From the IMG/VR virus record IMGVR_UViG_3300028844_005639: DNA of 64,000 nucleotides; one strand, 5' to 3'. This stretch comes from a virus. Both the position numbers and the translations under genes were made by a program. Under the pieces are notes generated by a model. The model made no database searches and was not told the origin of the DNA. It worked only from the letters and a program-made list of their open reading frames with translations. Shown here piece by piece: positions 34-47,273 of the stretch. The first letter of the stretch is position 1, and each line of letters begins with the position of its first letter.

Positions 34-1710
34 ATGCGTGGAAACACTTCACAAGGTGTGGCTAAGTTACAGCAGATTCGCCGCGAATGGGACGGTTACA
101 TGAACAATCCTAGCGGTCGTGGGTACCAGGCACAAAGATTCTATCAAGCTAAAGTTGCCGGAGATAAAGAGTATAAGACCATGGGTAAAGATCATTCAGG
201 AAAAGATATTACTCGAGGATTACAGAGCGCAGTTAAAGGCTGGCAAGAAGCTGGTACTTATGGCGCTATTGTCACAGACGAAGAAGGTAAAGCTACTGGA
301 GACTTTAGGGATTTCGCAGATCAAGCTGTACTGCCTCCTAAGTACTACAATGTAGAGAAAGAAGTTCAAAATTCGTTTAGAGCTTTGGGGCACACTAAGA
401 CTCAAGGGTTTATGGATGCCATGAATAATGGGGACATCAGTCTAGTCAATGTAGAAGGCGTACCTATGTTCAAAATGACTGGAAGAACAAGTACGCAGTC
501 TAACAAAAATCAGGTAGACCAACGTACTGTATCAATTATGAATGAGTGGCTGAATGGTCCTAAAGCTGAGTCAGCTGAATTCATGCAGTATACTCCAGAA
601 AAGCTTCAAGAAATTATTCGACAGGTAGGCAACTCAGCTTTGAAATTCGAACAAACTGTGGACCCTAATCGGTACCAACAAGTTCGAGGACTTGGCGGGA
701 GCGGTGCAGGCGGTGGCGCAGATAAGACTGCAATGACCCAAGCTTTACACAGTGTAGCTGAACAACTTCCTGGTGTAAAAGAAATTAGAGCACCTGGTTC
801 CAGGGACGGTTACACAGGATCAATACCTACATACGGTATCGGTATGCCTTACGAAGCAGTAGGTTCAACAGCAATGCAAAAAACCGATTTAAAGGCTTAC
901 GAACAAGAGGTTAAAGAATTTACTGCTCTTAAAAATCTCTATGAGTTTGAAGGTTCGGATAAAGAATTCGCTGAAGCATGGAACTTTGTAAACAAAGACA
1001 AGCAAAGTTTATTCCGACTAACATTATCTATGGGTGTAGCACCTACTGAAGCTGTTCGTACGGAACTACACAACATATCAAACAGCGCTACATACTTGGT
1101 ACCTGGAGCCAGCTCCCCGCTAAACCTAGGCCAATTAAAGAAACATATGCTAGGTGTTGAACTTGATGAAGATTTAACTCCGGAGCAGGAACAAGAATTT
1201 GAAGGTATGTGGGCAGCTCGTAAAGCTGAAGGATACCGTCCTACACAAGGAGGATTTGCTCTTGGGTTAGGTAACAAAAGTGTAGTGCAGTTAAATGAAG
1301 AGATTAGTCAACATCACCCGCTATCCCAACTAATCGGGGAAGCGGTACTTCCAAAAAATCCGGATACTAAAGAACGGGTAAAAAGTATTGACTTAGGTTA
1401 TAGAGACGAGTCTGGAAACCCACAACCTATTAAAGTAACTCCTAGGATAATACCTCGAGACGGTGGGGGATACAAATTAGTTACTGATATAGACATGCCG
1501 GCTAAAATGAGAAGTGATATAATGTCATATCTTACAAGTTCTGGACAAGCTAGGGTTCCTAAAAATGAAGCTGAGTATAAAGAACTAATAACATTAGCAG
1601 AAAACCCTCAAACTATTGCACGTTGGGAAAATAGTAGGTATCTTCGTTCAAGATACACTTCAGATTTGAATAAGGAAACGTCGAGTAAGAACGACATTGA
1701 TTATTACTAA
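34..1710 (+). CDS. virion-module protein of unknown function (558 aa), possibly 5'-truncated by the window edge
   Basis: Long ORF ending 5 nt upstream of the giant ORF on the same strand. The frame has no stop between nt 1 and 34, so the gene may start upstream of the window. No motif recognised. Confidence 0.6.
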   Translation: MRGNTSQGVAKLQQIRREWDGYMNNPSGRGYQAQRFYQAKVAGDKEYKTMGKDHSGKDITRGLQSAVKGWQEAGTYGAIVTDEEGKATGDFRDFADQAVLPPKYYNVEKEVQNSFRALGHTKTQGFMDAMNNGDISLVNVEGVPMFKMTGRTSTQSNKNQVDQRTVSIMNEWLNGPKAESAEFMQYTPEKLQEIIRQVGNSALKFEQTVDPNRYQQVRGLGGSGAGGGADKTAMTQALHSVAEQLPGVKEIRAPGSRDGYTGSIPTYGIGMPYEAVGSTAMQKTDLKAYEQEVKEFTALKNLYEFEGSDKEFAEAWNFVNKDKQSLFRLTLSMGVAPTEAVRTELHNISNSATYLVPGASSPLNLGQLKKHMLGVELDEDLTPEQEQEFEGMWAARKAEGYRPTQGGFALGLGNKSVVQLNEEISQHHPLSQLIGEAVLPKNPDTKERVKSIDLGYRDESGNPQPIKVTPRIIPRDGGGYKLVTDIDMPAKMRSDIMSYLTSSGQARVPKNEAEYKELITLAENPQTIARWENSRYLRSRYTSDLNKETSSKNDIDYY

Positions 1711-1715
1711 AAGCG

Positions 1716-4700
1716 ATGGGTAAACAAAAACGGGACTATAGCGACCCTACTTACGAAGAATTTCTATCCGCGGTAAATGAGGATCCTCAAAACCTTGAGC
1801 CGCCTACTACTTTAGATGGCGTAGAAGTGGAGCCTTTTATTCCACCTCAATCAGAGGAAGAGTTTAACGCACTTGTAAAAGAAGTTAAAGCTTCTGACAA
1901 CATTGGAAATAATTTTTCAGGTAGCGCAGATTTATCTGGTGGACGATTCGGAATCGGAGATACTAACCTAGATGACGATGGTGTTAGTCTATACCAGGTC
2001 CCACACTTAGAAGACCTTCGAGCACAAAGCCAAGGAGGTATGCGCCTATTAGGTAACGCTCTAACTAACTTTGGAATTGAAGCAGCTGCTGGTGTACTAA
2101 ACTTCGCCGGTACCATTATGGACTTCGAACAAATGGGTGACCTGATCAACGGCACTGAAATGGAGTTCTCAAACTTTTTTACTGATGCTGTTAACGGGGC
2201 CAAAGATAGTCTTGTTCAGGATGATGGAGCTATGTTTAAGATCTATCAGACTAAAGCAGCTCAGCAAGGTTTTGCTCCTACCGATTCCACTTGGTGGGCA
2301 AAAGGAGCAGGCACTTTTGGTACTTCAGTAGGTCTGATGGCCCCAGCATTGGCTGTAGGGTTTCTATCTGGTGGAGCTCTCGGAGCAGTTGGTGGGGCAG
2401 TAGCCGGTGCCACAGTCTCACGGTATGTAGAGAATACCATGGAAGCTTTTGAAGTTACAGACCGTCTATACAAAGATTTTATTCGTGAAGGTATGCCTGA
2501 AGAGCAGGCTCGAGAAAAAGCTGGAGCTCAAGGACGTAAAGTATGGATAGCTAACTCTGCAATGCTTCCTATCGATATAGCCCAGTTTATTATGTCGGCC
2601 GGTACTATGAAGGCTGCTAGTAAAATGGGCTTAGGTATGGCTAAAGCTATCGGTAAAGATGCCGCAACACAAATACCTCAAGAAGCTTTTGAAGAATTTT
2701 ACCAACACGTAACTGCTGAAGAAGCGGTAAGTGAAGGTTTAGGTAAGAGTGGTTTCTACGATCAAGGATTTACTTATCGATTAGGAGATTACGTACGTGA
2801 TGAACAAGCTTGGAATGCAGCTTTCTGGGGAGGTGTAGGAGGGGGAGTCTTCTCTGCAGCTAGTCCTATGATCCAAAAGAAAATGGAAAAGACTGCATTA
2901 TACAACGGTCTGTTAAATCAGTTTCGTCAAAAGGGAGATGCAGTACAGTTTGAAAAGACTAGTGCTACCATGGCCTACTCTACCGCTTTACAAGATCTAG
3001 AGAATACCGGTAGTTTAGATAAGAGTATTAGTACGCTTGATGCTATTGCTCAAGACGATAAACTAGAGCCTGAAGCTCGAGACCGTGTAACGTCACTCCG
3101 TACAGACTTAGAAGAAATTAATAAAGAGATTCCTGCGTGGCAAGACCAAGGTTATTCGAAAGCAGAGATTGCGAATCTTTCTAAGCTATCCATGGAACGT
3201 CGTGGTATCCAGCGTGCACGTAAGCAGCTTGATTCTGAAATCAGTGATCTCGAGAGTTCAATGATTGAAAACGATGCTATGACTCCAGGGGCCCTTGAAG
3301 TAAAGTCCGCTCAGACTAAAGCTGAAGCCTTATCTGAATTACAAAGATTCCTTACTCTCAAAGAACGTAACCAAGCGGCCCAAGAGCAGCAGATGGTTAC
3401 CGACGGGAAGAGTCCTGCAGAAATTGCTGCGTTTCAAGAAACTCGCAAGCATACTAAGACCATTTTAGGTCAGCTTAAAAAAGATGTCCCAGCTGCTGCT
3501 AAAGCTGCTGAAGAGGCAAAAGCTGCTTTTATAGAGTCTGAAGAATTTAATAATGACGTCGATACTCTAGAGGGTCAGACTTTAAGTACCATAGAGAATA
3601 AGTACTTCGAAGCTATAAGTAGACGTCAACAAGAGGACTATGCTTTAGGTCGCGTCAATCGTGATTTAAAAAAAGCCGGTACTCGTAGTTCTAAAAAAGC
3701 TACTGATCAACAAGCTGAGACAGAGAAAAAGAAAACTGAAGACGCAGTTAAGCAAGCGGCTAAAGATGAAAGCTCTATCGAGGAAATCAACAAACTCTTT
3801 AAACGTAATGACCCTATTACGTACACTGATGAAGAGGGGAACGAGGTCAAAGGTACTTTTCAAGGTACTAGCCAAAGTGGCGTAGCTGTAAAAGGAGAAG
3901 ACGGGGTTACCCGTCCAATAGCCAAAGACAAGTTTAGTCAAGCTATTGAAGAAAAACAAGCTTCTTTAGAAGGTACTACTGAGGATATTAATAAAACGGC
4001 TAGAGAAAAAACAAATGAATCTCCTGGTGGATGGGGAGCAGGCACTGTTGAAGAAACTGCTGCACCTAGTTCAGAAGCTAAAGGAGGCTGGGGAGAAGGT
4101 ACCACAGAAGGTGCTACTAAACCAGAAGCAGATCCTACTACTGAACCTGAAGTAGGCGTTGACAATAAAGTCGTTGATGAAGCTCATCGAGGGCCCGGGG
4201 AAGTATCGACTACTCCAGAAAATAAATCTATTGCTAGTGAGAAAAAGCGTCCTACTACAATTGCTTGGATCTCTGCCAACAATCCAAAGTACAGTGGAGA
4301 GCAGCATGATGCCGATAATAAAGCCACTACTGAATTCTTCGAAGCAGATAATACTACTGAAGGTCTCGAGGCTCGCGTAGTAATTAGCAATGAGATACAA
4401 GATTGGGATACTCAAGACTCCCCTTTAGATGTTGACGATGTAGATATTCAGCTTAACGTTTTAGACGATCAGGGTAACGAAATTAAGATTAACGACGGCC
4501 AAGTACGAGGATGGGTACACAAAACTAATTTCGAAGGGTACAAAACTGAAGCCCAGAAGAAACAAATAAGAACTATACGTCAAAACATGATTGACGCTGT
4601 TCGTGCGGGAAATGAAGTACGAGTTAAACTAGGCCCTAAGAAAGGAGGACAAATCTGGTATTCATCAGAAGTCAATACTCTTGAAGACATCTTTAAGAAA

Positions 4701-7700
4701 TCCTATGAGGATATCAATGTTTATGTAGTAGACAATACTGGGCAGTTGATGCCTGGTAACCCGATTGTTACAGCAATGCCTGATCACACCGGTAAGATAG
4801 CTGTAGTCTTCGAAGGATATGATGGCCAGCTTATTGCAGCTACTGGTGGTACCGCTAAGTATACTCCAGCACTTGCTGACGCCGCTATGATAGTATTACG
4901 TAACGCTACTAATTATTTAGGTAAATCGACTATCACTCCAAAGTTGGCTAAGTACCTAAGAGAGCACGAGTCTACTGAAGTTTCTGATGTCGGCACAATC
5001 TTTAATCTAGATCCTACTAAAGGAGATCTTCCTACACTCAACGAGTTATTAAACTTTTTCGTTGTGGAAGGTAGCCGGACAGAAGGCAACAAGAATGCTT
5101 TAAAAGCAAAAAAAGGAGAAGGTGTCACATACGTTTCGAATGGAAAAACTCGCTTAATCGATAATAAGTCTACTCCCGAAGAGACTCAAATGTTTAAAGA
5201 GCATTTACTAAGCCTCGGCTTTCCAGTACAAGCTCAGCATGTACAGACTCCTGCAGGCCGTAAATGGTATTACCAACACGGGATTTACAACTTTAAATTA
5301 AAGCCTACAGCTAAAGGAGTTCCTATACACACACCTACAATACATTTCTCGGAAAATATTGAGGCCATAGCTCCTAAAGAAAAAGCGACTCAAACTTCGA
5401 AAGCGTCTTCTATGGACAGCCGTATGGATGAGGTTAAGGCTGTCAGCCAAACTTTCTCTTTGTCTAAAGATGAGAAGAAGTACACTCGAGTAGTTGATGG
5501 TAAAACGTTAACATACGAGCGCGTTACTCAGTTTTACAAAGGCGAATCTACTGAGAAGACTCCGAAACCTGTCATGATTTCAGGAGGTATCATCGGTGAT
5601 AAGAATGACGAAATCTGGAGAGCTTTCTTCAATGGTGAGATTAAAACTGCTGAAGACATTCGTAAATATAAGTTCCAGAAGAAAAGTATTAAAGGGCAGA
5701 AGTTTGGTAAGAATCTTACAGACGCCCAGCTTGAGACCTTCTTAAATAGGCTCAAAGCTCTCCAAACTGATTTTGAAAAACAAGGGATGAAAGTCCTAGC
5801 TACTGATGTGGTAGTGTTCGATGACGTCGAGATGGTAGCAGGTACCGTAGATTTACTTCTTTACAATGATAAAGGGGATGTATGGATCTACGACATGAAG
5901 GCCATGAAGGGTAACAAATTTACTGAGCATTACGGCAAAGATCCTAACACTAAATATAATGCTACGTTCGATGGCGGGATGTCTGATAAAGAGGCACACT
6001 CGAATCAGCTGTCTGCCTACAGAGCACTTCTACACAACGCGTACGGGATGACCGCTAGTAAGTTAGCCATTCTTCCTACAGTAGTTTCTTACAACCCTGG
6101 AGACACGGATATTAACTTCAGTGACGTATTCGGTACTGACGAGCAAGAAATTAGATTCGAAGTTCTGAATCCTTACCCGGTAGCTATTAAAGACAAAGTT
6201 GTGCACCATGCAGATTCCGATCGAGTCTTAACTATCCGCAAAGGAAAAGTTACTAAAGACGTGACCAAGAAATCTGCAGACGATATCATGGACGGCCTTC
6301 TAGGAGATGGGTATAGTTCTACATTAGACGATTCTATTTCTAAAGAACGTCAGATGGACACTCAGACGCTAGATACTATCTTACCTTACTCTACTCGTAG
6401 AGTATCTACCATGGAAGAAACCATTACTGGTCTACTTACTTTAGGGGATGCAGATGTAATGACTGACATGTATGCTATGCAGAAAGCCGCTGCTTTTGGT
6501 GGCTCTACGTTCATGCAAGAGTTCGGATCCAAAGTAAAAGTAATTGTCCGATCAGGTCGAGAGATGAGTGCACGTCCTTCAATGGCGGGTAAAGACGCTT
6601 CAAGAACTATCGGTATTTACGAACCAGAAACGAACCAAGTAGTTATGAATAAGGACCTCATTCCTTACGCGACTCCTAACATGCTAGCACGTACTTTACT
6701 TCACGAGTTTGGCCACGCTGGTACAATCCACGTAATGCATATTTACGAAACCGATCGTACTTTACTAAGCGGCTTAGCACAAGACTATGTATCTACATTT
6801 TATGAGATGTATGATAACTTACAACTTACTGATTCCGAAAAAGCAAAGACACATGCTTTAAAAAGTCCTCAAGAATTTGTGGCTGAGTTTTTTGGTAATC
6901 AAAAATTCCGTCAATGGTCTGTTGAAAGATTAGTAGCCAATAATGAAAAAGCTACTGGAAACATTTTACGACGTTTATTCACTTTCTTCAAAGAGCTATT
7001 TCGATTCGGGTTTAAAGCGGCTATTAAAGCGCAACGTCCTGTTACTGCAGACCAGTTAATGGGAGAATTTGACGAAGCTTTCTCTGCTTCGATTAATGAT
7101 ATTCGAGTAGCTGCTAGAGGACTTGGCGGTTACTATGCTCAGGAAGTACAAGAACCCGGTGAAGCGACTCCGTCAGAATTAGACGCGCAAGAAACAAACG
7201 AAGTCTTAGACTTTATGCAGCTTGTATTCTTTACCCAGCTTCAAGGAGCCAAAAGCTCTGTTGTAAACCTTTCTTTAGACTTTGGCCAAGTGCGAGAAAA
7301 ATTAGCCACTCTATCTGAAGAAGCAGAAGCTTCTATTGCGAACGTATTTAAAAGAGCAGTTCTCCCAGAGAACTATGCGATTTTAGTAGGTCGCTTAAAT
7401 GATAGACTACGTCAAGCAGGTATCGTGATCAACGAAGAGGCGGAAAGCTCCATGAAAGAAATGGGAGAGTACGACAAAGCTTCTTTCACGATCAACCGTA
7501 AACAGAATGCGAATCTTGATGTAAAACTTATGGTAGCCAGTCTTCCAGAGATGGATGCAAAAGTTGATTCAGAGGGTAACTACACTTATACAGCAGCCAA
7601 AGGAGAACTTCTCGGTCTTGGTAAGCTGGCTCCTGCAAACGCTACTTGGTATGCAATACAGCATCTGTTAAAGAACCTGACTATTACTGAAGGCAACTCT

Positions 7701-10700
7701 GACGTGTATTCAACTATGCGTGAAAAGATCCGCCAGTTTACTCCATTCTATCCGAGTTTAGCGGTGCTAGGAAACTGGTTAGACAATGCTCCAGAGTATC
7801 GTCGAACACAGTTCATGAAAGCTTTTAACCTCCAAGAGATTACATTTATCTTGTACCAATTTAACGGTTATGGTAAAGACCTATCTGTTCGTCGAATGGA
7901 TACTACTTCTGTAAGTAAGCGTAACAATTTACTTGAGATGTGGAAGAATGGCTTTACTACAGCTTTCTTCCAAACGAATGAAAAGAATGAGGTCAAACTA
8001 ACTTCGAATGCTAAGATAGCGGTAGAGAGATTCAACGAACTCGCCAAAGAGACCTCTAGATTACGTAAAGGAGGCAAGCTCCCTAAGGAACACTTGGCCG
8101 ATTGGGCAACTTTCTTAAAAGACTCTGGTATAGGTATAGATCCTCGAACGCTCGAGTATGGTGCTACACTTCGAAATGAGTCTAATCCAGCCGATGGTTT
8201 ACAGCAGCTTATTAATACCACTTTCCGGTACGTATTTGCAAAAAGTAATTACGGTAATCCGCTAGCTAAGCTGGTTAACGAAGGAGTAAGCGTTGATGAA
8301 AATGGGGACATTCCTAACCCTATCAAGCATGCTGATTCTGAATCAAGTCTTAAATCTTTAGTCGAACTCGAGATGATGTTCCGACCTCAAATGAATGAAT
8401 CTACTGTATTAGGTGCTGATGGTGATAGTTACTGGGTTTTCCAAACCTATGACTACACGAACCTATTGATCGATGAGTTAAAAGCTAATCCTAAAATGGT
8501 GGACTCTTTACTTCAGATACCTTACCATAAGCATAGTTCTATTTTAAAACTGATGCAGAAATATGGTACAGACATCATCAAGGTAGACACCTGGAACAAC
8601 GCGCGTCGTATGAACGCTGCTGATAAAGGTACCAAGTATTCTCGTCTAGAGCGGCCAGATGACCTCCTGTTAAAAATGTGGGGATACACTAAAGGTGTGC
8701 TTCCTTACATCAACCAAGCGGATAAGTCTCGCCACTATGAGATTTCTCTAGACTTCAAAAAAATTAAAGAGCGTAATGGCGGCAAAGAAGTTATTTTACT
8801 TCCAGAAACGGCTATGCGTAAAGACGGTACTTGGGCTTTAGGGCGATCGGTTCCGTTAATGGCTTCATTGTTCTTAAACGAACTTAATGCTTCTCGTCTT
8901 GCTTGGGAACAAGTATTCGGAGATAACAAACTCCCGGACAACGAGCTTATTGAAGATTATCACTTTGTCAGAGATGAATCTGGGAACATGGTTAAAACTT
9001 TACCCAACGGCCTTCCCACTGGTTCTGTATTTTATTCGGATATTTTCCCGGAACTTTCTCCTGGCACAGGGCTAGCTGTAAGCTTAGACCTATATGATAG
9101 TAATGGTCGACCTAACGTAGCCAACAGCGAAGAGTACTACGCAGGTACTACAGGTGGTGGTAGTAAATTAATCCCGTCTTTCCAAAAAGCTTTCGAACCT
9201 TTAGTTCTAGCTAAGATCCTTCGTGAGAAAAACCGACTGCTACAAATAGCCGAAGACGATGGCCTTATCGAAAAAACGGATAGTGGTTATGACAATCTTA
9301 TTATCCCGGAAGAGCTTATAACAGAGTCTGGTACTTTAGAGAATCTGTTCATGACAGTGGCTGCAAGATCTATTTACGCTAATGCAGAAATCACATCATT
9401 GTTTTACGGGGACCGACGAGTCTTCTCTAAAATGAAGAAAGATTCAGACGGAGCTTACATGCAGGGAGTATTCTCATCTAGCCTTTCAAAAAGGGTTACT
9501 GGAGCTACTGCTGTTAAAGGGCGCCTTAGAATCGATGGTAAGCGAGTACGTAAAACGTATAAGGCTGCTGTCATTGCTGACATGATAACTTTCTCGGATA
9601 AACTACTCTCTGAAGAACACTTGAGAGAAGTGGCCAAAGCTACTGGAGAAAGCTTCAGCGCTATCAAAAGAATTTTCTCGGATCAGGGAAAAACTAAAAA
9701 CGAACAAACTGGTTCCGGGTACGACAACAACAACGCTGCAGATGCGCAAGCGTGGATTACCCTAGATAGGGCAAAAGAAATTTTTGAAGGGGAAGGTCTC
9801 TGGGACGACCAGATGGAGGACGCTTACGAGTCACTTAAAGCAGGAAAGCTAAAGCAAAGTGATGTAAAGCTTTTTAGCAAAGCTGTTAATTTAGCGCCTC
9901 AAAAGGGAGCTTACTTTGCGCCGATGGTTATTAACAACCAACGTGTGTCAGTCATGGACAAGTATTCTCAAGCTATTTTGTATCCGGGATTGACTAAAGG
10001 CACTGGACTAGACGGTTTGCGTTTAGCCATGGAAAGAAAAGTAGACGGCCAAAACGCAGTCGATGAGGTCATCACTCGTTCTGGTTCTAAAGGAGCAGTA
10101 CAAAAAGTAGCTACTATATTCGATAGCGACGGTAACATGTTAGACCAAGCAACGATCGAAAAAGAACTATTCACTACTGACCGGGAAAATAAGCATTGGG
10201 GACGTCAGGTAGAAATGAGTCCTAAAGCACTTAACGATAACACCTTAGTTAATACTCAGGTACGTAAAAACGTATTCGCTAATGTCGATCGGGAGTACGT
10301 ATATGAATCTGGCCGTAAAGGCGGAGAAATCTTAGCGGAAAAAAATGCGGTAATTTCTGAACTAAGTAATAGAGGTTTAGCAGAAGTTTCTGCTTTATAT
10401 GGTACAGACCCTGATGGCCGGTTTAGTGAACCAGCTATTCGTAAAGTGATGCGCGATGAGATGGTAGCGAACAACGCTCCTCAAGACCTTATTGATTCAC
10501 TTGATGGTACTACTAACTTAAACGCACTTCCTCAGGATCGAAAAACACTTTGGTATCGAATTGCTGCAGGAGTAGTAAAAAACACAGTTAAGCTTAAGCA
10601 ACTTGGTGGAGGGTTTATCCAAATGTCCATAGCTGGTATTTCAGATACTACTGAAGCAGGTGTTGTGGATCTTTCGTACTTGAAGGATTTAAAGAAGCTT

Positions 10701-13523
10701 AAGGAAATGCGTCGTAACATTATTTGGTTGAAAGACCGTAAGGACTTAGATCCGCCGATGATTAAAGACGGAAAACTTATCCCGGGACAGATTCTTCTTC
10801 CATACAAGTTCCTTAACCTAGTAGGCGGGGATGTTTCGAAGATTGATAAAAAGCTTCTTAACATGATCGGTTACCGTATTCCTAACCAAGGAGACGCCTC
10901 TACTGATTTACTTGAAGTAGTAGGATTCCTTCCAGAAGAGTATGGTGATACAGTAATTGCTTATGCAGAGATTACCGAAAAAACTGGTAGTGACTTCGAT
11001 ATTGATAAAATGTACATCATGGCCCCTAATTTCACGATGACTGAAGAAGGCTTAATCAAGACTCCTTACAATGAAGGAACATCTAAAGATGATGTTAAAG
11101 CACGTTACGAGATCTATTCAAAAACATTGGCAACTAAGCATGCCCTCTACGCAGAACTTGACAAAGTAGATTTTTGGAATCACCGTTCAAACTTAGTGCT
11201 AGACGCGGTTAAAGAAATCCTGAACGCCAAGTTTGCTAAGAATGACAATGCGTTAGCCTTTATAGCTATGATTGATAGTACGGAGTACGAAAACTCCAGT
11301 ATCCTAGACTCCATCAAGTCTTCGAATAACGTAGATATCTTATCGTTTGAAGAGTTCGCTAAGCTTCCGGTTACTGAACAGATTACTACTGAAGCTCTTC
11401 AAAACAGGTTTATGGATATCATGACAGAAGTTCTTTCGGAACCTTCTGGGTACATAAACATGATGACTCCATTGGAGTACCGTACCGCGGCTATTAAGAA
11501 AGACCTTAATCAAGTGCTAGAGGAATCCAATAGTACTCGAGATATTGATGCTTATGGTTTATCAGGACAGATTGATTCCAAGTATGCGTTTGCTGGAGGT
11601 AAAGCACAGCTTGGTGAGGTGATGAATTTCCTTCAGGACCACAGTGTGCGCCGTGAGGTAGGCCGTTTTATCAAAGCCGGACTCATAGACCTTAAAGCTG
11701 TAGAAACTCGTTTAGATGGGCGCTATGATGAAAACGGAGTGCCGTTGATGCAGATCTTTTCTGCGTACGCCTCGCTTCACGTAGATATTGCGACAGATCC
11801 TATCATTATCCGTGCAAACTGGTCTCAAGATACTACTAAAGTAGGATTGCTTATGCTGGCTGCTGGGTTACCTTATTCAAAAGTCGATCGGATTTTAAAT
11901 CAACCTATTATACGAGAGTACACTAAAAATAAACGACGCTTACGTGCAAAGTCTACTACACCTATCAAAAACAGTAACGGTAAGAAACTAAGTGCTTTTG
12001 AAGTAGCTGCTTTGAAATTTAATGAAGGTCAGAATATTAACGAAAAAGATTTACCAGTAACTGCTCCTAGTATGTTGACTAACAAAGTTTTAACGAGCCA
12101 GTTACAGTCAACAGGTAATGAACAGTTAGGTATCTTAGGTTTATACAAATTGTATGAAGACAACGCTAAAGAACTTACTCGAGGTATCCAAAATTCGAAG
12201 GTCGACAGCTCGCCGCCTAAACACCTTGTTGACGCATATGTTAAAGCGGACGTACGAGAAAAGATACAGCAGCATGATACTATAGGTAACTGGGATCAAA
12301 CTTTTGACCAAACTTTCTTAGGTACTATGTGGAAAAACTCTGTAACTACCCTCATTAACGGCTTACAGGACATAGCTATTGAAGGTACCCCAGCATTCCA
12401 AACAGCTATGAAAGAGTTCATGCATATGTCTGGACAAGATGTTTCAGTAGATGCGGTAGAGCAGTTCATGGAAGAGCTGTATGGAGCGTTCGCTTCAGGT
12501 TCTTCATTAAGCTTAACCGACGCGGAGTTTCAACGAATTTTTATAGGCAGCCAATCAGTGGCCCATAAAACTGTGGAGTATCAACAACCAGGCAGTCCGC
12601 TATACGGAAACGTATTTATTCAGTATCTGAATCCGAGTATTAAAACCGGAGATCACCCATCGATAGTCACAATTGATAACAACAATCAAATTTCAAATGA
12701 CGTTATCAACAATTTAAGAAACCAGTGGGTACAGCTTTATCGCCACGAAGATCCAGCTATTCGCGCTTATGCTTCTGACTTAGCTAAAGCGGCTTACCAC
12801 ACAAGTAATTTCAGGTATTCTACAAGAAGTATGTTGAAGTTACTGCCGGATCCTATCCTTCAAGACTTAGGGTATACAAAGTATGTAGAGGAGGCTATAT
12901 CTGGGAAGTTACAGGAAAGTAATTACTTATTGCCTATGATTAACCAAGTCTATAAGCACTTGTCAGACAACTCATCTTTGGTTCCTTTTGTTCCGTTTAA
13001 AGATATGCAGACAGTTCCAGTAGCTAACGAGTATAAAGACTATTTTCACAAAAGTCGCGTAGCATTAGTCGATGTCGAGAATAACCCAAAACTGGTTATT
13101 AAAAGCGATGGGAAAGATTTACTGCCTAACATGAAGCCCTTTATCTCCACCAAACTAAAAACAGGTAGTGAAGAGCAAGGGAATCGACGTCAAATAGATG
13201 CTACCATGATGTTCGTCGGTGTAACCAACAGTAAAGGCCGACAAAAAGCAATTTATGTTCGCACAAATACTCTAGGGTACTTCTCGGAAGGGAAGCGAGT
13301 AACAGAGTACAGCTTCTTCGAGTCCGGTAAGACTTCGAAGTTCTCTAAGAATAATGTACTTTTGTCTAAGGAGCAAAGAGGACTTATAGGGCAGTTCCTT
13401 AAGGAGAGTGCTGAAATAGCTAGTAGAGTCCAAGAAGATATGACTTTCTCAGCAGAACGTAGAGCACTGTCCCCGGAAAACGAAGAGAATCAAAAAATCA
13501 GTAAATTCTGTAGCACATCATGA
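1716..13523 (+). CDS. giant (3,935 aa) multidomain virion/ejected protein with a two-barrel RNA polymerase-like module (crAss-like vRNAP candidate), a PD-(D/E)XK nuclease-like module and an HExxH zincin motif
   Basis: Uninterrupted 11.8-kb ORF. Beta-like motif DEVITRSGSKGAVQKV (about nt 10064-10110) resembles GRHGNKGVISK. Beta-prime-like MIGYRIPNQG...TGSDFDIDKMYIMAP (nt 10863-11030) resembles NRAPTLH...NADFDGDQMAVHVP. PD-(D/E)XK pattern GTVDLLLY...VWIYDMKA...QLSAY (nt 5841-6020). LLHEFGHAG at nt 6696-6722. Gly-rich hydrophobic segment GAGTFGTSVGLMAPALAVGFLSGGALGAVGGAVAGA near aa 195-235. Confidence 0.85.
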   Translation: MGKQKRDYSDPTYEEFLSAVNEDPQNLEPPTTLDGVEVEPFIPPQSEEEFNALVKEVKASDNIGNNFSGSADLSGGRFGIGDTNLDDDGVSLYQVPHLEDLRAQSQGGMRLLGNALTNFGIEAAAGVLNFAGTIMDFEQMGDLINGTEMEFSNFFTDAVNGAKDSLVQDDGAMFKIYQTKAAQQGFAPTDSTWWAKGAGTFGTSVGLMAPALAVGFLSGGALGAVGGAVAGATVSRYVENTMEAFEVTDRLYKDFIREGMPEEQAREKAGAQGRKVWIANSAMLPIDIAQFIMSAGTMKAASKMGLGMAKAIGKDAATQIPQEAFEEFYQHVTAEEAVSEGLGKSGFYDQGFTYRLGDYVRDEQAWNAAFWGGVGGGVFSAASPMIQKKMEKTALYNGLLNQFRQKGDAVQFEKTSATMAYSTALQDLENTGSLDKSISTLDAIAQDDKLEPEARDRVTSLRTDLEEINKEIPAWQDQGYSKAEIANLSKLSMERRGIQRARKQLDSEISDLESSMIENDAMTPGALEVKSAQTKAEALSELQRFLTLKERNQAAQEQQMVTDGKSPAEIAAFQETRKHTKTILGQLKKDVPAAAKAAEEAKAAFIESEEFNNDVDTLEGQTLSTIENKYFEAISRRQQEDYALGRVNRDLKKAGTRSSKKATDQQAETEKKKTEDAVKQAAKDESSIEEINKLFKRNDPITYTDEEGNEVKGTFQGTSQSGVAVKGEDGVTRPIAKDKFSQAIEEKQASLEGTTEDINKTAREKTNESPGGWGAGTVEETAAPSSEAKGGWGEGTTEGATKPEADPTTEPEVGVDNKVVDEAHRGPGEVSTTPENKSIASEKKRPTTIAWISANNPKYSGEQHDADNKATTEFFEADNTTEGLEARVVISNEIQDWDTQDSPLDVDDVDIQLNVLDDQGNEIKINDGQVRGWVHKTNFEGYKTEAQKKQIRTIRQNMIDAVRAGNEVRVKLGPKKGGQIWYSSEVNTLEDIFKKSYEDINVYVVDNTGQLMPGNPIVTAMPDHTGKIAVVFEGYDGQLIAATGGTAKYTPALADAAMIVLRNATNYLGKSTITPKLAKYLREHESTEVSDVGTIFNLDPTKGDLPTLNELLNFFVVEGSRTEGNKNALKAKKGEGVTYVSNGKTRLIDNKSTPEETQMFKEHLLSLGFPVQAQHVQTPAGRKWYYQHGIYNFKLKPTAKGVPIHTPTIHFSENIEAIAPKEKATQTSKASSMDSRMDEVKAVSQTFSLSKDEKKYTRVVDGKTLTYERVTQFYKGESTEKTPKPVMISGGIIGDKNDEIWRAFFNGEIKTAEDIRKYKFQKKSIKGQKFGKNLTDAQLETFLNRLKALQTDFEKQGMKVLATDVVVFDDVEMVAGTVDLLLYNDKGDVWIYDMKAMKGNKFTEHYGKDPNTKYNATFDGGMSDKEAHSNQLSAYRALLHNAYGMTASKLAILPTVVSYNPGDTDINFSDVFGTDEQEIRFEVLNPYPVAIKDKVVHHADSDRVLTIRKGKVTKDVTKKSADDIMDGLLGDGYSSTLDDSISKERQMDTQTLDTILPYSTRRVSTMEETITGLLTLGDADVMTDMYAMQKAAAFGGSTFMQEFGSKVKVIVRSGREMSARPSMAGKDASRTIGIYEPETNQVVMNKDLIPYATPNMLARTLLHEFGHAGTIHVMHIYETDRTLLSGLAQDYVSTFYEMYDNLQLTDSEKAKTHALKSPQEFVAEFFGNQKFRQWSVERLVANNEKATGNILRRLFTFFKELFRFGFKAAIKAQRPVTADQLMGEFDEAFSASINDIRVAARGLGGYYAQEVQEPGEATPSELDAQETNEVLDFMQLVFFTQLQGAKSSVVNLSLDFGQVREKLATLSEEAEASIANVFKRAVLPENYAILVGRLNDRLRQAGIVINEEAESSMKEMGEYDKASFTINRKQNANLDVKLMVASLPEMDAKVDSEGNYTYTAAKGELLGLGKLAPANATWYAIQHLLKNLTITEGNSDVYSTMREKIRQFTPFYPSLAVLGNWLDNAPEYRRTQFMKAFNLQEITFILYQFNGYGKDLSVRRMDTTSVSKRNNLLEMWKNGFTTAFFQTNEKNEVKLTSNAKIAVERFNELAKETSRLRKGGKLPKEHLADWATFLKDSGIGIDPRTLEYGATLRNESNPADGLQQLINTTFRYVFAKSNYGNPLAKLVNEGVSVDENGDIPNPIKHADSESSLKSLVELEMMFRPQMNESTVLGADGDSYWVFQTYDYTNLLIDELKANPKMVDSLLQIPYHKHSSILKLMQKYGTDIIKVDTWNNARRMNAADKGTKYSRLERPDDLLLKMWGYTKGVLPYINQADKSRHYEISLDFKKIKERNGGKEVILLPETAMRKDGTWALGRSVPLMASLFLNELNASRLAWEQVFGDNKLPDNELIEDYHFVRDESGNMVKTLPNGLPTGSVFYSDIFPELSPGTGLAVSLDLYDSNGRPNVANSEEYYAGTTGGGSKLIPSFQKAFEPLVLAKILREKNRLLQIAEDDGLIEKTDSGYDNLIIPEELITESGTLENLFMTVAARSIYANAEITSLFYGDRRVFSKMKKDSDGAYMQGVFSSSLSKRVTGATAVKGRLRIDGKRVRKTYKAAVIADMITFSDKLLSEEHLREVAKATGESFSAIKRIFSDQGKTKNEQTGSGYDNNNAADAQAWITLDRAKEIFEGEGLWDDQMEDAYESLKAGKLKQSDVKLFSKAVNLAPQKGAYFAPMVINNQRVSVMDKYSQAILYPGLTKGTGLDGLRLAMERKVDGQNAVDEVITRSGSKGAVQKVATIFDSDGNMLDQATIEKELFTTDRENKHWGRQVEMSPKALNDNTLVNTQVRKNVFANVDREYVYESGRKGGEILAEKNAVISELSNRGLAEVSALYGTDPDGRFSEPAIRKVMRDEMVANNAPQDLIDSLDGTTNLNALPQDRKTLWYRIAAGVVKNTVKLKQLGGGFIQMSIAGISDTTEAGVVDLSYLKDLKKLKEMRRNIIWLKDRKDLDPPMIKDGKLIPGQILLPYKFLNLVGGDVSKIDKKLLNMIGYRIPNQGDASTDLLEVVGFLPEEYGDTVIAYAEITEKTGSDFDIDKMYIMAPNFTMTEEGLIKTPYNEGTSKDDVKARYEIYSKTLATKHALYAELDKVDFWNHRSNLVLDAVKEILNAKFAKNDNALAFIAMIDSTEYENSSILDSIKSSNNVDILSFEEFAKLPVTEQITTEALQNRFMDIMTEVLSEPSGYINMMTPLEYRTAAIKKDLNQVLEESNSTRDIDAYGLSGQIDSKYAFAGGKAQLGEVMNFLQDHSVRREVGRFIKAGLIDLKAVETRLDGRYDENGVPLMQIFSAYASLHVDIATDPIIIRANWSQDTTKVGLLMLAAGLPYSKVDRILNQPIIREYTKNKRRLRAKSTTPIKNSNGKKLSAFEVAALKFNEGQNINEKDLPVTAPSMLTNKVLTSQLQSTGNEQLGILGLYKLYEDNAKELTRGIQNSKVDSSPPKHLVDAYVKADVREKIQQHDTIGNWDQTFDQTFLGTMWKNSVTTLINGLQDIAIEGTPAFQTAMKEFMHMSGQDVSVDAVEQFMEELYGAFASGSSLSLTDAEFQRIFIGSQSVAHKTVEYQQPGSPLYGNVFIQYLNPSIKTGDHPSIVTIDNNNQISNDVINNLRNQWVQLYRHEDPAIRAYASDLAKAAYHTSNFRYSTRSMLKLLPDPILQDLGYTKYVEEAISGKLQESNYLLPMINQVYKHLSDNSSLVPFVPFKDMQTVPVANEYKDYFHKSRVALVDVENNPKLVIKSDGKDLLPNMKPFISTKLKTGSEEQGNRRQIDATMMFVGVTNSKGRQKAIYVRTNTLGYFSEGKRVTEYSFFESGKTSKFSKNNVLLSKEQRGLIGQFLKESAEIASRVQEDMTFSAERRALSPENEENQKISKFCSTS

Positions 13524-16500
13524 TATGTCCTAATGTAAACAGCCAGGAATGGCAGCACCTTGTAACTGCGGTAGGCGAAGATCTCGCTTATTATTTATGG
13601 GACGCCAATAACGGTAACCCAATGTCTATGACTCCGCAAGGAGAATTATCGCCATTGTACGACCAAATGCTGGACTATACTAACGGTAATGCTTTCGCTG
13701 CGTCAAAGCTTAAAGCGAGTGCTTACGATATCGCTTACCTACAAAGTAATGAGTGGCGTAAGGGTGCTGAGCCTAAGCTCGAAGTTAAAAGTAATGGCTC
13801 TTTGTACTTAGTACAGGATGTCGAAGGAGTTCCGTTTTACTACCGTATTAAGGCCCCAAGAACTACTACTAGTTTAAACTTCAATGATGCTGCTTCTATG
13901 GATGCGTATAAAGCTCCAGAGAACGAAGAAGACTTCAACACGAAGCTTGATATGATGCAAAAAAACTTCGCAGCATTTGACATAGACTTACAATTCGAAG
14001 GAGTGAATCCATCGATCGTGGCCATTAACGGCCGGATTCAACTTAACATGCCTTATCCTAACATATTAGCAGGGAAAGACAGTTTACTTCACGAGCATGG
14101 CCACATTTTAATCGAAGCTTTAGGTGGTATGAAAGATGACCACATAGCATTCGCTAGGCGTCAACTTGCAGGTACCAAGCTTGAAGAAGAGGTTACCAAA
14201 ATGTATCGTAGCCTAGATCAGGAATCTCTGGACAAAGAAATTATAGCACAAGCGGTAGGTATGAAGGCCGCGGAGCTTTTTGATGACTTAATGAAGCAGC
14301 GTAAATGGAAAGCTTGGCTTAAAGTTTACTTAAATCGATTGAAAGCTACACTAGGACTTAATCATGACGCAGTCATGGAACTAAGTCGCAAACTTCTTTT
14401 AGACGAATTAGCCTACACTGAGACCGACTTCCAAGCGGATGATAAGGTTTTAGGTACGCCATTCGAGCAACGTCAAACTGTTGAGGGGGTCCTAGAGAAT
14501 TTAATGGAACGAGTGCAGAGTTTGTATGCCCACTGGCAGCGTTTTAAAAACACAGACGCTATTGAACGTATGGGTCAGATGATTGAAGACATGGTAAACT
14601 TTAATGACATTCGATCGGCTATCGTGTACACCCAGAATGCAGAGCGAACTACGCTTAGGATCGAAAAAGACTTTGAAGAAATAGAAGCTAAACTCAAAGC
14701 TGGGGGATACATTACGGACGCAGAGTTTGAAAAACTTAGCCACCACCTCAAAAACATGCAACAGTTTGCTGGAGCTTTTAACTTGATTCCGGAAATTCAA
14801 GAATTGTTAGAAGCAGGTGAAATAGAATTCGGTAAGAAAGACTTAGTAGAGCTCGACTTTAAAGCCCCGGTAAAGACTTTAGGAGCAGTAGATGCCCGTC
14901 TCAAAAAGCTAGACAGGATGTACCAACGTATAATTCAAGAGTACACGGTCCAGCGCCACTATAAGGATATTGACATTGTGGAAAAAAACTGGGGACGAAA
15001 ATTCGAAAAAGAATACCACAAGCTCTACCGTAGCGCTGATCGTAAACGTCTAGGTAAAGAGGAGTACGATCGACGTAAACTAGCATTCATTAAGGAAAAG
15101 CTGGGAGAGAACCAGGCGACTATTGATGCCGAGTCTCAACAGTATTTACGTAATATGCTAGATAGACATATTGGATACGTTAGTGACATATCTTCACTTA
15201 CAGAATGGGCCTCGGATCCAAAATCCATTACTGATTCGGTTATGCAGATAGCCATAAAAATCATGGATAGAATCGATGAGGAAGTGCGCTTCGAGTTTCA
15301 ACAAGCACTTAGAGAACCTGTGGAAGCTTTTCAAAAATTTACAGCAGAACGAGGTAATCCTTTAAATCAGGAGGAGTTGTACAAAGGATTGTACGAAGAA
15401 ATCGACGGAGAAAAAACCGGATTTTACAACGGTAAGTTCCTAAGCTCCTTCTTGACTAATAAAAACGTATTGTGGAATGCTTATGCGGAAGCTAAAGAAG
15501 TAGATCCAAACGGTCCTAAAGAATTAGAAGCAAAAGCTGCATTCGAAGAGTGGAAGCTTGAGAACGAAGAACAACCTTATACAGCTGAGTTCTTAAAAAG
15601 GGTAACTGAGAATCGTGAACAATTTGTTCGTACAGAGGAGTATGTAAGGCTGAGTAAAGAACAGGCTAAAATCAGAAAGCGCTACATAATTAATGGAAGT
15701 TTCGCTTATGATAGACTCACTCCCGTAGACAAAGAAGCTTGGAACGCTAATGAAGCTGCACTTAAAGTAGAGCGGGAAGTTACTAAAGCGGAGAATAAAA
15801 CAGTACAAGAGGAATTTTTCAAGCTGTGGAAGTTTGTAGAAACTGCTCGTTACGAGAAAGTAAAGGACGAAAAACTTTTAGAAGGTACTGAGGCATACAA
15901 CGAATGGTATGTGGCTAATCATGATAAAGGTAAGGCTAAGCCCGCCTGGACTAAACTAGTGCCAAAAAGTGATGCTAACAATAATCCGAATTATCGGGAA
16001 CATTATACGACTCCGAAGTCGCAATGGTTAAACCCAGCTTGGGGGAACATGAAACAAATGATGGAGAACGAAAACAGTTCTGCGGGACAAATGTTGAAGT
16101 TCTTAAAAGAGAATGCTAATCGTGTGGATAAGGAATACGCGGGGAAAAGTCATCGTCGTAAGTATCTTACAAACGATGCTATGGACGACCTGATAGGGAT
16201 TCCGAAAGCGGAAAAACAGACTATCGAAAGGATAGCTGAGTCAGGCGTGCGTGCGGTATTTTGGGAAGGGTTAAAAGACAAACTGCAAAAAAGATCTACA
16301 GACACAGATCTAGAGATGGAAACTATGGATAACCCCGAGTGGGAAAAGTTCGTTAAAGTAGTTGTTGATGAGAATCACAAAGTAAAGCGATTCATTCCTA
16401 TCTACTTCCGAAACAGTCTAGCTAATAAAGCTGACCAATCTTATGACTTACTTTCACTAGAAATGATGGACTTGTATGCGGCTTTAAACTACAGCCGTAA

Positions 16501-18055
16501 AAGCAAATCCGAAGCAGACATCATGATCATTCAAGATGCTATGGCTAATCGAAAAGTAGCGCAGCAGAAAGGATTTAAGTATATGGTGAACTCTATCCTA
16601 CCTTGGATGAAGGGCGAAAACTTTAAACCGGTAAATATTGAGGGAGTGCACTCTAATGTTTATCAAGCCTTAGCTTCTACAGTAGAGAATCGATTATACA
16701 ACATCGGTGTACAAGATGCTGGGTCCGTCAAAATATTTGGAAAAAAGATTTCATTAAATAAACTATCCGACACTATTGCCGGATTCACTGGTTCCGTCAT
16801 GCTGACCTTCAACTGGCTGTCTGCAGGAGCTTCTGGACTACAGGGTAATATCCTGAACATGTCGGAAGCTTTTGGAGGCGTTAATATCAACGCGAAGAAT
16901 ATTAAAGCAGCGTACGCTTTGTATGCTGCTGATTTTGGGAATGTCCTTGCAGATGCTGGGCGTGTTGTACATAGAGCTAAGACTAACGCTTTACTCGAGT
17001 ACTTCAATCCGTCTGGTGCTTATCAAGGATTAGAAAGGCGTTTCTCTCAAAACAATATTATTCGACAAACAGCCGGTGCTGGTCTACATGCATTAAACTT
17101 TACCAACTGGCAGGAGCATCAAGTGCAAGGTACTTTAATGTACGCATTGCTTGATAGTTATGAAGTAGCTACTAAGTCCGGAGAAACTATGCCTTTACAC
17201 GAAGCTTTGGTAGTAGCCTCTAATGGTACTATTAGCTTTAATCCTGAAATCTCGCTGTCAGATAAGGAAATGAAAAGCTTACTGCTAGAGGCTTTCCGTA
17301 AGATTAAAGAAGTTACGAAGCAAAAGCATGGTAATTATGATCCAGCTAACAAAGCAAAAATGCAGCGAGTTATTGCTGGGCAACAAACTAGTATGCTACG
17401 TAAGTGGTTAGTACCAGGAGTACAACATCGCTTTCTCAATCTACGTTCCTTCAGTAAGGACTTCGAAGACATGGACGCCTACGAGTTAAGTTATAACGAA
17501 TCTTCTGGGCAATTTCAAGAAGGTATTTACACGACTACTTTAAGATTCTTACGCCAGTACCACAAAGAATTATTGGGACTTAAGTTTAAAGTAGCAGGAG
17601 CTGCCTGGGACGAGCTTACAGACGTGGAGCGAGGTAATATTCGCCAAACTGTATTTGAAGCTGGTATGATGGGCGCTACCTATTTAGCTTTTCTTGCTTT
17701 CTTATCGTTAGCAGAGGATGACGACGAATGGGCATATGTCCCAGCATTCTTCATGAGAAGATTATTTGGAGAACTTAGCTTCTATGTATGGCCGCCAGAG
17801 GCTTTCAAGATTTTACATTCGCCTGCAGCGACTGTATCTATGCTCGAGAGATTATCAGTGCTTGCTGTGCAAGCTATTTATGATATAGGAATGGTAGCTA
17901 CAGGAGGCGAAGCTACTCGATACGTGCAGAAACCGCACAAGGGGGAATTAAAATTGTGGAGACGTACTAAACAAGCTTTACCGATCGCATCTCAATTAGA
18001 ACGAAACGTTCAGAAGTCTCTGGAGTACCAACGTCGGATGATGGTTAACCAATAA
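13520..18055 (+). CDS. large (1,511 aa) virion/ejection-module protein with an N-terminal HExxH zincin motif and a C-terminal hydrophobic segment
   Basis: ATGA-type 4-nt overlap with the giant ORF. DSLLHEHGHILIEALGG has HEHGH at nt 14090-14104 (aa 191-195). C-terminal AGMMGATYLAFLAFLSLA looks like a TM helix. Confidence 0.8.
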   Translation: MICPNVNSQEWQHLVTAVGEDLAYYLWDANNGNPMSMTPQGELSPLYDQMLDYTNGNAFAASKLKASAYDIAYLQSNEWRKGAEPKLEVKSNGSLYLVQDVEGVPFYYRIKAPRTTTSLNFNDAASMDAYKAPENEEDFNTKLDMMQKNFAAFDIDLQFEGVNPSIVAINGRIQLNMPYPNILAGKDSLLHEHGHILIEALGGMKDDHIAFARRQLAGTKLEEEVTKMYRSLDQESLDKEIIAQAVGMKAAELFDDLMKQRKWKAWLKVYLNRLKATLGLNHDAVMELSRKLLLDELAYTETDFQADDKVLGTPFEQRQTVEGVLENLMERVQSLYAHWQRFKNTDAIERMGQMIEDMVNFNDIRSAIVYTQNAERTTLRIEKDFEEIEAKLKAGGYITDAEFEKLSHHLKNMQQFAGAFNLIPEIQELLEAGEIEFGKKDLVELDFKAPVKTLGAVDARLKKLDRMYQRIIQEYTVQRHYKDIDIVEKNWGRKFEKEYHKLYRSADRKRLGKEEYDRRKLAFIKEKLGENQATIDAESQQYLRNMLDRHIGYVSDISSLTEWASDPKSITDSVMQIAIKIMDRIDEEVRFEFQQALREPVEAFQKFTAERGNPLNQEELYKGLYEEIDGEKTGFYNGKFLSSFLTNKNVLWNAYAEAKEVDPNGPKELEAKAAFEEWKLENEEQPYTAEFLKRVTENREQFVRTEEYVRLSKEQAKIRKRYIINGSFAYDRLTPVDKEAWNANEAALKVEREVTKAENKTVQEEFFKLWKFVETARYEKVKDEKLLEGTEAYNEWYVANHDKGKAKPAWTKLVPKSDANNNPNYREHYTTPKSQWLNPAWGNMKQMMENENSSAGQMLKFLKENANRVDKEYAGKSHRRKYLTNDAMDDLIGIPKAEKQTIERIAESGVRAVFWEGLKDKLQKRSTDTDLEMETMDNPEWEKFVKVVVDENHKVKRFIPIYFRNSLANKADQSYDLLSLEMMDLYAALNYSRKSKSEADIMIIQDAMANRKVAQQKGFKYMVNSILPWMKGENFKPVNIEGVHSNVYQALASTVENRLYNIGVQDAGSVKIFGKKISLNKLSDTIAGFTGSVMLTFNWLSAGASGLQGNILNMSEAFGGVNINAKNIKAAYALYAADFGNVLADAGRVVHRAKTNALLEYFNPSGAYQGLERRFSQNNIIRQTAGAGLHALNFTNWQEHQVQGTLMYALLDSYEVATKSGETMPLHEALVVASNGTISFNPEISLSDKEMKSLLLEAFRKIKEVTKQKHGNYDPANKAKMQRVIAGQQTSMLRKWLVPGVQHRFLNLRSFSKDFEDMDAYELSYNESSGQFQEGIYTTTLRFLRQYHKELLGLKFKVAGAAWDELTDVERGNIRQTVFEAGMMGATYLAFLAFLSLAEDDDEWAYVPAFFMRRLFGELSFYVWPPEAFKILHSPAATVSMLERLSVLAVQAIYDIGMVATGGEATRYVQKPHKGELKLWRRTKQALPIASQLERNVQKSLEYQRRMMVNQ

Positions 18056-18127
18056 GAAACGAGTGGCAGTACTTTAGCCTGGCTGTGTTTACGAACCTCA
18101 CTCATTAATGCTTGCACTCTATTTAGC

Positions 18128-45324: not shown

Positions 45325-47273
<1,949 letters not shown>

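Follow-up and report, generated by a model that had tools for sequence, protein, structure and literature searches.

Viral genomes sometimes hold a single reading frame of several thousand codons, and such a frame raises the question of what one chain of that length is and whether it is real. The question is posed here by a 64,000-nucleotide (nt) stretch of viral DNA, IMG/VR record IMGVR_UViG_3300028844_005639 (the window, throughout), whose listing of open reading frames (ORFs) contains one unbroken frame of 3,935 amino acids (aa) with an ATG start, at 1716..13523 on the plus strand. This ORF begins 5 nt past the stop of the ORF upstream and overlaps the ORF downstream, 13520-18055, by 4 nt. 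A sequence-only reading had described its product as a virion protein combining the two barrels of an RNA polymerase (RNAP) with nuclease, protease, and membrane-insertion modules; the ORF is present as described, and the motifs quoted from it are found within 1-3 nt of where they had been put. The ORF listing, together with phmmer and hhalign comparisons, indicates that the ORF is very probably a natural in-frame fusion of two adjoining Crassvirales cargo genes, one for a protein like gp67 of phage phi14:2 and gp47 of phage crAss001, the other for a virion RNAP (vRNAP) like gp66 of phi14:2.

Sequence comparison supports the C-terminal ~2,080 residues (aa ~1858-3935) as an orthologue of the two-barrel vRNAP gp66. 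When the whole protein was compared by phmmer with all PDB sequences, the sole entry matched was 6VR4, phi14:2 gp66 (E=1.4e-77), over aa 1923-2275 (gp66 224-576 in native numbering) and aa 2654-3511 (gp66 940-1761). The second stretch, at 9675..12248, comprises the RNAP catalytic core, delimited by phmmer, alignment, and Foldseek, and homology to gp66 across it is also significant by tblastn (E 3e-74). Within it lies the active-site block of the second double-psi beta-barrel (DPBB-2), GYRIPNQG ... KTGSDFDIDKMY (10863..11027), both elements of which are identical in gp66 (1320-1368), as is TGSDFDIDKMY. A motif scan places MIGYRIPNQG (aa 3050-3059) at nt 10863-10892 and EKTGSDFDIDKMYIMAP (aa 3088-3104) at nt 10977-11027. 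The DFDxD metal motif, with Ile or Val at its fourth position, is present as D3093-F-D-I-D3097 (nt 10992-11006). Its three aspartates, D3093/D3095/D3097, which had been proposed from the sequence as a metal site, align with gp66 D1361/D1363/D1365, and replacement of any one of these by alanine abolishes RNA synthesis by gp66 (Drobysheva et al., 2021). Across 22 homologues the DPBB-2 block is invariant, the flanking KTGSD included.

The first barrel (DPBB-1) is represented by the loop DEVITRSGSKGAVQKV (aa 2783-2798), which occupies 10062..10109 rather than nt 10064-10110 as first noted. The loop, likened earlier to one of the beta subunit, has two lysines. K2792 corresponds to gp66 K1065, a position about 30 residues ahead of the Connector that joins the two barrels, and is nearly invariant in the 22 homologues, whereas K2797 is not conserved and faces a threonine in gp66. 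The alignment of gp66 with the ORF also covers the gp66 Connector (at about aa 2826-2967 of the ORF), its bridge helix (about aa 3281-3311), and its trigger loop (about aa 3343-3381). The C-terminal region of the polymerase part, aa 3512-3935 (12249..13520), is homologous to the C-termini of the RNAP ORFs of loci L007 and L004 and of P0025, the closest relative of the window protein. Among public homologues of the RNAP core (proteins P0005-P0022), many are ~1,350-1,500 aa long and end at ...TGSDFD, where the consensus of our alignment A3 stops too. At locus L013 (7097-14999) the ORF breaks at TGSDFD and resumes about 930 nt on, and the gap matches the group I intron family RF00028 twice (E 3.4e-7 and 7.6e-5, both below the gathering score); unlike L013, the window has an uninterrupted RNAP gene.

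An AlphaFold model of aa 2650-3520, with a predicted local distance difference test score (pLDDT) of 60, returned 6VR4 as its sole significant Foldseek match in the PDB (E 3.7e-24); global superposition of the two was poor at this pLDDT, despite that match (template modelling score, TM, 0.21). Against BFVD the same core model gave 42 significant Foldseek matches, nearly all of them giant proteins of crAss-like phages. QDE-1 and cellular beta/beta-prime had been put forward for comparison alongside gp66, and gp66 alone was recovered: in the PDB Foldseek search QDE-1 was absent and cellular beta-prime appeared at just E about 8. A direct structural match to them was not obtained, and the link to QDE-1 and the cellular subunits runs via gp66. 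PDB, Pfam, and PHROG searches gave no match to the single-subunit polymerases of T7 and N4. Through the phmmer match, the identical catalytic motif, the Foldseek match to 6VR4, and synteny with cargo genes, the crAss-type single-chain two-barrel vRNAP of the sequence-only reading is supported.

By profile comparison, homology reaches as far back as gp66 residue 139, the counterpart of aa 1858 (hhalign probability 99.2%, E 8.3e-20, gp66 139-584), and the gp66-like N-terminal region recognized by hhalign and phmmer spans aa 1858-2283 (7287..8564). The match takes in residues 196-233, the cleft-blocking, auto-inhibitory segment of gp66. Judged by homology, about aa 1899-1935 (nt 7410-7520) is the counterpart of this cleft-blocking domain and would have the same function. 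The junction between gp67-like and gp66-like sequence is placed between aa about 1765 and 1858. An N-terminal part beyond the polymerase, put at about 2,700 residues when the ORF was first read, is thus real, and its size is about 1,800.

By alignment, these N-terminal ~1,800 aa are the orthologue of a separate cargo protein, gp67 in phi14:2 and gp47 in crAss001, and not a new extension. A profile built from nine sequences over aa 1-450 matches the N-terminus of gp67 with an hhalign probability of 96.3% (E 2e-9, 281 columns), and the control comparisons with the N-termini of gp66, gp65, and gp45 gave 0.1-0.2%. Contained in this region is an N1 domain (aa 56-400; 1881..2915), detected by phmmer and by hhalign to the gp67 N-terminus, which matches the N-termini of fused giants in L023 (phmmer E 6.7e-42) and also in L015, L016, and L007. 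Further along, aa 1333-1460 matches crAss001 gp47 aa 1737-1869 (E 4e-14). The only strong hydrophobic stretch in the ORF, aa 204-230 (2325..2405), reaches up to 1.75 over 19 aa in a Kyte-Doolittle scan and is a candidate membrane-inserting helix. One Gly/Ala-rich hydrophobic stretch of this kind is found at ~residue 100-230 in each of the window protein, P0025, gp67, gp47, L023, L007, and P0031, and the RNAP-only proteins are without it; the glycine-rich segment pointed out earlier is therefore conserved in position across the family. It resembles the crAss001 gp45 segment that is predicted to be transmembrane (Bayfield et al.).

Between the N1 domain and the nuclease the sequence is less widely shared. 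The low-hydrophobicity region aa 401-880 (2916..4355) is highly charged and aligns to P0025 only, with no homologues found beyond it; inside this region a short direct peptide repeat, GGWGAGT...GGWGEGT, occupies aa 771-797 (window 4026-4106). The following aa 881-1236 (4356..5423) is 42% identical to P0025 and partly common to the gp47-like proteins of the Bacteroides phages DAC15/DAC17 (tblastn matches covering aa 976-1459 and 1109-1459). No Pfam family matched aa 881-1236, and Pfam searches on six sub-segments and neighbours gave nothing.

Gene order agrees with the two-part composition. In phi14:2 the order is gp68 (579 aa), gp67 (1,797 aa, a virion protein), gp66 (2,180 aa, the RNAP), and gp65 (1,421 aa). 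In the window it is a 635/558-aa gene, cut at the window start, the 3,935-aa ORF, and a 1,511-aa ORF. The last of these (13520-18055, plus strand) is a gp65 orthologue, an 'RNA polymerase associated protein' (BLASTP E 7e-68). The first (34..1710, plus strand) stands at the position of cargo protein 2, is 635 aa long in full contigs, where a crAss_CARG1 (PF25725) gene precedes it, and gave no significant BLASTP match to phi14:2 gp68. The lengths of gp67 and gp66 add up to 3,977 aa (1,797+2,180), near the 3,935 observed. With the gp65 orthologue downstream, this sum, the gp67 profile match, and the gp47 match, the ORF is best explained as a gp67/gp47-like protein joined to a gp66-like one.

A fusion that corresponds to two abutting genes elsewhere could also arise in the data, if an error of sequencing or assembly had removed a stop codon or shifted the frame between them, and in phi14:2 and several related loci the gp67 and gp66 genes are indeed separate and abutting. 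Here that is extremely improbable. Contigs of 45-92 kb, at least five in number and drawn from different ENA and JGI samples, carry the same or a near-identical 3,935-aa product. P0025 (3,587 aa, 42-48% identity) is fused as well, with similarity unbroken across the junction, and fusions of 3,500-6,600 aa are seen in at least ten other loci or proteins. The repeat contigs, the P0025 fusion, and the other fused loci rule the artefact out. Nor is the fused state singular: among 24 related IMG/VR loci the RNAP-bearing ORF is unfused (~2,150-2,600 aa, with a separate ORF of 1,350-1,950 aa ahead), doubly fused (~3,500-4,700 aa), or triply fused (5,200-5,600 aa), and the order N1-nuclease-HExxH-RNAP recurs in the giants P0031, P0058, P0065, and P0099.

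Two enzyme-like modules lie in the stretch before the polymerase. The first, a PD-(D/E)XK nuclease cassette of the RecB/PDDEXK_1-like kind (aa 1237-1510; 5424..6245), is recognized by its match to the phrog_298 exonuclease (E 1.8e-7), by the crAss001 gp47 match, and by its motifs. In alignment A1, of the ORF and five homologues, D1379, D1393-M-K1395, and Q1431xxxY1435 are invariant. Pfam PF12705 (PDDEXK_1) is matched by five of the six aligned sequences (best E 3.8e-7); the window sequence itself matches NERD only, below the cut-off (E 0.012). A precomputed PF12705 match exists for P0001, a 1,394-aa protein in which the same nuclease is joined straight to sequence that resembles, by eye, the gp65-like C-terminal domain. 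The nuclease suspected in the sequence-only reading is accordingly supported at the level of homology, and with its D...DxK...QxxxY motifs intact the cassette may well cut DNA. A model of aa 1230-1800 was unusable (pLDDT 35); its order of secondary-structure elements fits the alpha-beta-beta-beta-alpha-beta core of the superfamily, and its top Foldseek matches, none of them significant, were the nuclease domains of AdnAB and Exo5. In a PDB profile search with the nuclease, Exo5 came up at E 0.8.

The cassette appears to travel. P0025 aligns to aa 1-1236 and 1511-3933 and is without the nuclease, a clean domain indel, and because it lacks exactly this cassette, the nuclease can be regarded as a discrete, mobile domain. 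A HMMER scan of 1.84 billion representatives found the module in 165 clusters. Giant proteins, 1,400-6,600 aa in length, make up many of these, and in the ones examined the module is found either ahead of the RNAP or behind it.

The second module is zincin- or gluzincin-like (aa 1609-1763; 6540..7004). It is homologous to phi14:2 gp65 aa 191-335 (E 1.4e-6) and, at six related loci, to the N-terminal portions of gp65-like ORFs. It carries the one HExxH of the ORF, HEFGH at aa 1663-1667, a motif also singled out when the ORF was first read and now placed, by homology, in a zincin-like module. H1663, E1664, H1667, E1720, and E1724 are invariant in alignment A2, and the two histidines, E1664, and E1720 also in the wider A7. 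The Pfam SprT-like family is matched below its cut-off (E 4.3e-4; 20.6 bits against 25.6), and five of seven members match it likewise. Profile searches of the PDB gave marginal likeness to anthrax lethal factor, in its catalytic domain with an identical HEFGH (merged profile, E 1.7e-3), then to the minigluzincins MJ1213 and projannalysin (E 0.03-0.06), and more weakly to WLM and Spartan. The module may be proteolytic.

Other HExxH motifs occur among the cargo proteins. One, HEHGH at aa 191 of the gp65 orthologue in the window, is homologous to the region around HEYGH in the triple fusion P0031. That the gp65-like HEHGH and the crAss001 gp47 HEAFH belong to the same module as the ORF zincin was not demonstrable (hhalign 4% and 1%), and because the HEHGH of the gp65 orthologue is not demonstrably homologous to it, the ejected proteins here would carry two different HExxH modules.

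The best PDB match of the zincin profile is gp48, the tetrameric ejection protein of Pectobacterium phage PhiM1 (8VB2), and against four internal core proteins of Autographiviridae the profile scores an hhalign probability of 96.3% (E 1.5e-9). The merged profile also matches two more solved internal virion proteins, 9sfn_G and 23sg_S (E about 4e-4); the PhiM1-like loci used for comparison were L029-L032. Pfam found nothing in the PhiM1-type segment. Its authors name the surroundings of the segment an 'endolysin/exotransglycosidase-like domain' (Asp268-Asp528), GenBank labels the protein an 'internal virion protein with endolysin domain', and the conserved HExxH...E goes unmentioned in the endolysin-like description.

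These matches bear on what the zincin might act upon. It could be a hydrolase directed at the cell wall or the host, digesting peptidoglycan or cleaving a protein of the host as the ejected proteins pass through the envelope. The homology to the PhiM1-like segment and the position of that segment within an endolysin-like domain speak for this, as do the listing of peptidoglycan digestion as an option by Drobysheva et al. and the match to anthrax lethal factor, a gluzincin that cleaves host proteins. HExxH gluzincins are, however, classically protein peptidases, no peptidoglycan-binding domain was found, and the PDB matches to known zincins are marginal. We consider this role possible but rather unlikely.

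Alternatively the target could be the chain itself. In a processed polyprotein, the zincin would cut its own chain in the capsid or after ejection, freeing an activated RNAP together with an ejection protein of the gp67 kind. Relatives encode the two halves in separate genes; the zincin is situated right at the gp67/gp66 junction, some 100 residues ahead of the point where gp66 homology begins and some 135 ahead of the cleft-blocking segment; and H1663, E1664, H1667, and E1720/E1724 are intact and invariant. Drobysheva et al. propose cleavage for fused polyproteins ('likely cleaved into individual components') and suggest that the zincin might activate the RNAP, and autoprocessing by metallopeptidase domains is proposed for polyvalent proteins in the available portion of Iyer et al. 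(2017). On the other side, a cleavage site or processed product is known for no crassvirus. The same portion of Iyer et al. (2017) has N4-like vRNAP-type proteins and the plasmid proteins ArdC and TraC1, all with such a domain, being encapsidated or transferred full-length. In most relatives the zincin of this type lies in gp65, not at the junction, and its position here may equally reflect domain shuffling. Processing is on balance doubtful, and an uncleaved single chain is equally possible, given that the proteins with such a domain in that source travel full-length. A narrower proposal, that the zincin is a cis-acting maturation switch which releases the polymerase from a membrane-anchored half and removes the cleft-blocking domain, would if true answer how crass-type vRNAPs become activated and, with the same module found in T7-like internal core proteins, would hint at an exchangeable 'ejectosome protease' cassette common to unrelated podophage families; we think it improbable. 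Self-processing with RNAP activation, peptidoglycan hydrolysis, and cleavage of a host protein are the three candidate roles of the zincin.

Returning to the fusion of a gp67-like cargo protein with a gp66-like vRNAP, what is known of its orthologues suggests how it might work. Products gp65, gp66, and gp67 were detected by tandem mass spectrometry in phi14:2 virions (Drobysheva et al., 2021; annotation), and gp47, gp49, and gp50 by mass spectrometry in crAss001 virions (Bayfield et al.). gp66 transcribes early genes (Drobysheva et al., 2021), and the gp66-dependent early transcripts are without a detectable common motif. By analogy, the ORF product most likely transcribes early genes without the host polymerase, after packaging into the capsid and ejection along with the DNA. 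The protein would be made late, be packaged alongside the gp65 orthologue and the smaller cargo proteins, and be driven out through the tail either before the DNA or together with it. Its N-terminal domain and hydrophobic Gly/Ala-rich helix may help to build a trans-envelope channel or to anchor the protein to one. In the cytoplasm the RNAP part would refold, the cleft-blocking segment (aa ~1899-1935) being displaced or removed, and the D3093/D3095/D3097 site could then transcribe early genes independently of the host enzyme. The nuclease cassette and the zincin would be accessory, shuffled domains, the nuclease probably acting on DNA and the zincin on the polyprotein, on peptidoglycan, or on a host protein. 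The insertion into membranes, the cutting of DNA, and the proteolysis that the sequence-only reading had placed in one ejected polypeptide would be functions predicted from sequence.

Several points weigh against this account. The N-terminal half gave no significant BLASTP match to phi14:2 gp67, and a profile was needed to connect them. A single Gly/Ala-rich stretch is weak evidence of membrane insertion. Packaging, ejection, and activity would be transferred from orthologues only 24-31% identical. The two barrels and the accessory folds are taken from alignment, the models being mediocre (pLDDT 60) or unusable (pLDDT 35), and whether the chain works intact or cleaved can be argued either way.

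The remainder of the window fits a distant Crassvirales genome, as far as its genes indicate, with TerL (60366-62657) closest to that of phi14:2 at 31% identity. Four transfer RNA genes on the minus strand (18127-18200, 18361-18442, 20105-20176, and 20183-20256) come straight after the cargo and transcription block, at the strand switch. Homologues of RIIA (30895-33414) and RIIB (29606-30898) are encoded, as are ribonucleotide reductase, DNA ligase, PolA, and helicases. In the replication block a full-length transfer-messenger RNA (44841-45252, minus strand; Rfam RF00023, 74.9 bits, E 2.9e-27) adjoins a gene for a GroEL-like chaperonin (45325-46968, minus strand; phrog_5725, E 2e-168), which has the RIIA, RIIB, reductase, ligase, PolA, and TerL genes nearby.

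Among known systems the nearest is phi14:2 gp66 itself, to which the ORF is homologous over gp66 ~139-1761. The DFDID triad and GYRIPNQG are identical, the DPBB-1 lysine, Connector, bridge helix, and trigger loop align, and the gp65 neighbour is the same; identity is only about 24-27%. gp66 is a separate protein of 2,180 aa, whereas the polymerase of the window is the C-terminal part of a 3,935-aa chain, and for the opening ~140 residues of gp66 a counterpart could not be detected in the ORF, which has the zincin module in their place. The N-terminal domain is shared with gp67, including a hydrophobic segment at the same position. With gp47 the ORF shares a homologous nuclease module and an HExxH ~200-290 residues downstream of it. 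Both gp67 and gp47 are encoded by separate genes, that of crAss001 gp47 even on the opposite strand to the RNAP gene. Unlike the ORF, phi14:2 gp67 has no detectable nuclease or HExxH, and the central part of the ORF, aa 401-1236, is lineage-specific relative to both.

Beyond the crassviruses, the vRNAP of N4 (gp50, about 3,500 aa) is likewise giant and ejected, and its N-terminal domain has been linked to a membrane complex. It is of the T7-like single-subunit kind, with a central polymerase and a C-terminal domain bearing HExxH; its domain order differs from that of the ORF, no sequence match was found, and the two are analogous in function, not homologous. According to the available portion of Iyer et al. 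(2017), a metallopeptidase domain is nearly always joined to N4-type vRNAPs, and polyvalent proteins combine, as the ORF does, a zincin-like metallopeptidase with nucleic-acid enzymes for use right after entry. As seen there, the focus of the survey was on N4-type RNAPs along with other sets of domains, and the RNAP of the ORF is of the two-barrel type; the ORF, with nuclease, zincin, and RNAP in one frame within a cargo block, is a polyvalent protein by the definition taken from there. The PhiM1-like internal core or tetrameric ejection protein (8VB2), a positional analogue of T7 gp16, shares with the ORF the pattern HExxH ... YG(F/L)x(N/D)xxEF(I/V)(A/S)x ... N(P/S)xFR. Both would be capsid-internal and ejected, the ORF product by analogy; the homology covers ~100-190 residues, outside which the proteins are unrelated, as are the phage families. 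With QDE-1 and cellular beta/beta-prime the ORF shares the beta-prime-like NADFDGD-type triad and, upstream and equally spaced, an RxPxxx block. According to the paper describing gp66, its structure is related to the barrels of QDE-1 and cellular RNAP, whereas the ORF has no significant direct sequence or Foldseek match to either.

Giant RNAP genes of 'up to ~6000 aa' have been called a crAss-like phage hallmark (Yutin et al., 2018, 2021), and fused polyproteins, a zincin domain, and PDDEXK domains in giant transcription proteins have already been reported in the Crassvirales literature. Every element of the ORF is therefore on record, and the combination is not new. The additions made here are modest: the N-terminal half as a gp67 orthologue, a gp65-type zincin moved to the junction, the nuclease as a clean indel, and homology linking the crass zincin with internal core proteins of the T7-like kind. 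Their main practical value is a correct annotation, that of a vRNAP as a gp67+gp66 fusion with the catalytic residues of polymerase, nuclease, and zincin intact. The zincin beside an auto-inhibitory segment, together with the 8VB2 homology, offers a handle on polymerase activation and on the role of the zincin; these are leads, not discoveries. With its zincin at the junction and a nuclease that may be present or absent, the ORF adds one more data point to the free shuffling of modules among the ejected proteins of crassviruses. Other giant crAss-like fusions join two or three proteins of the transcription block in the same way, with a domain content that varies by lineage; set against them, the ORF is a double fusion with gp65 left separate, carries a zincin of the gp65 type, and has a nuclease that is absent in its closest relative.

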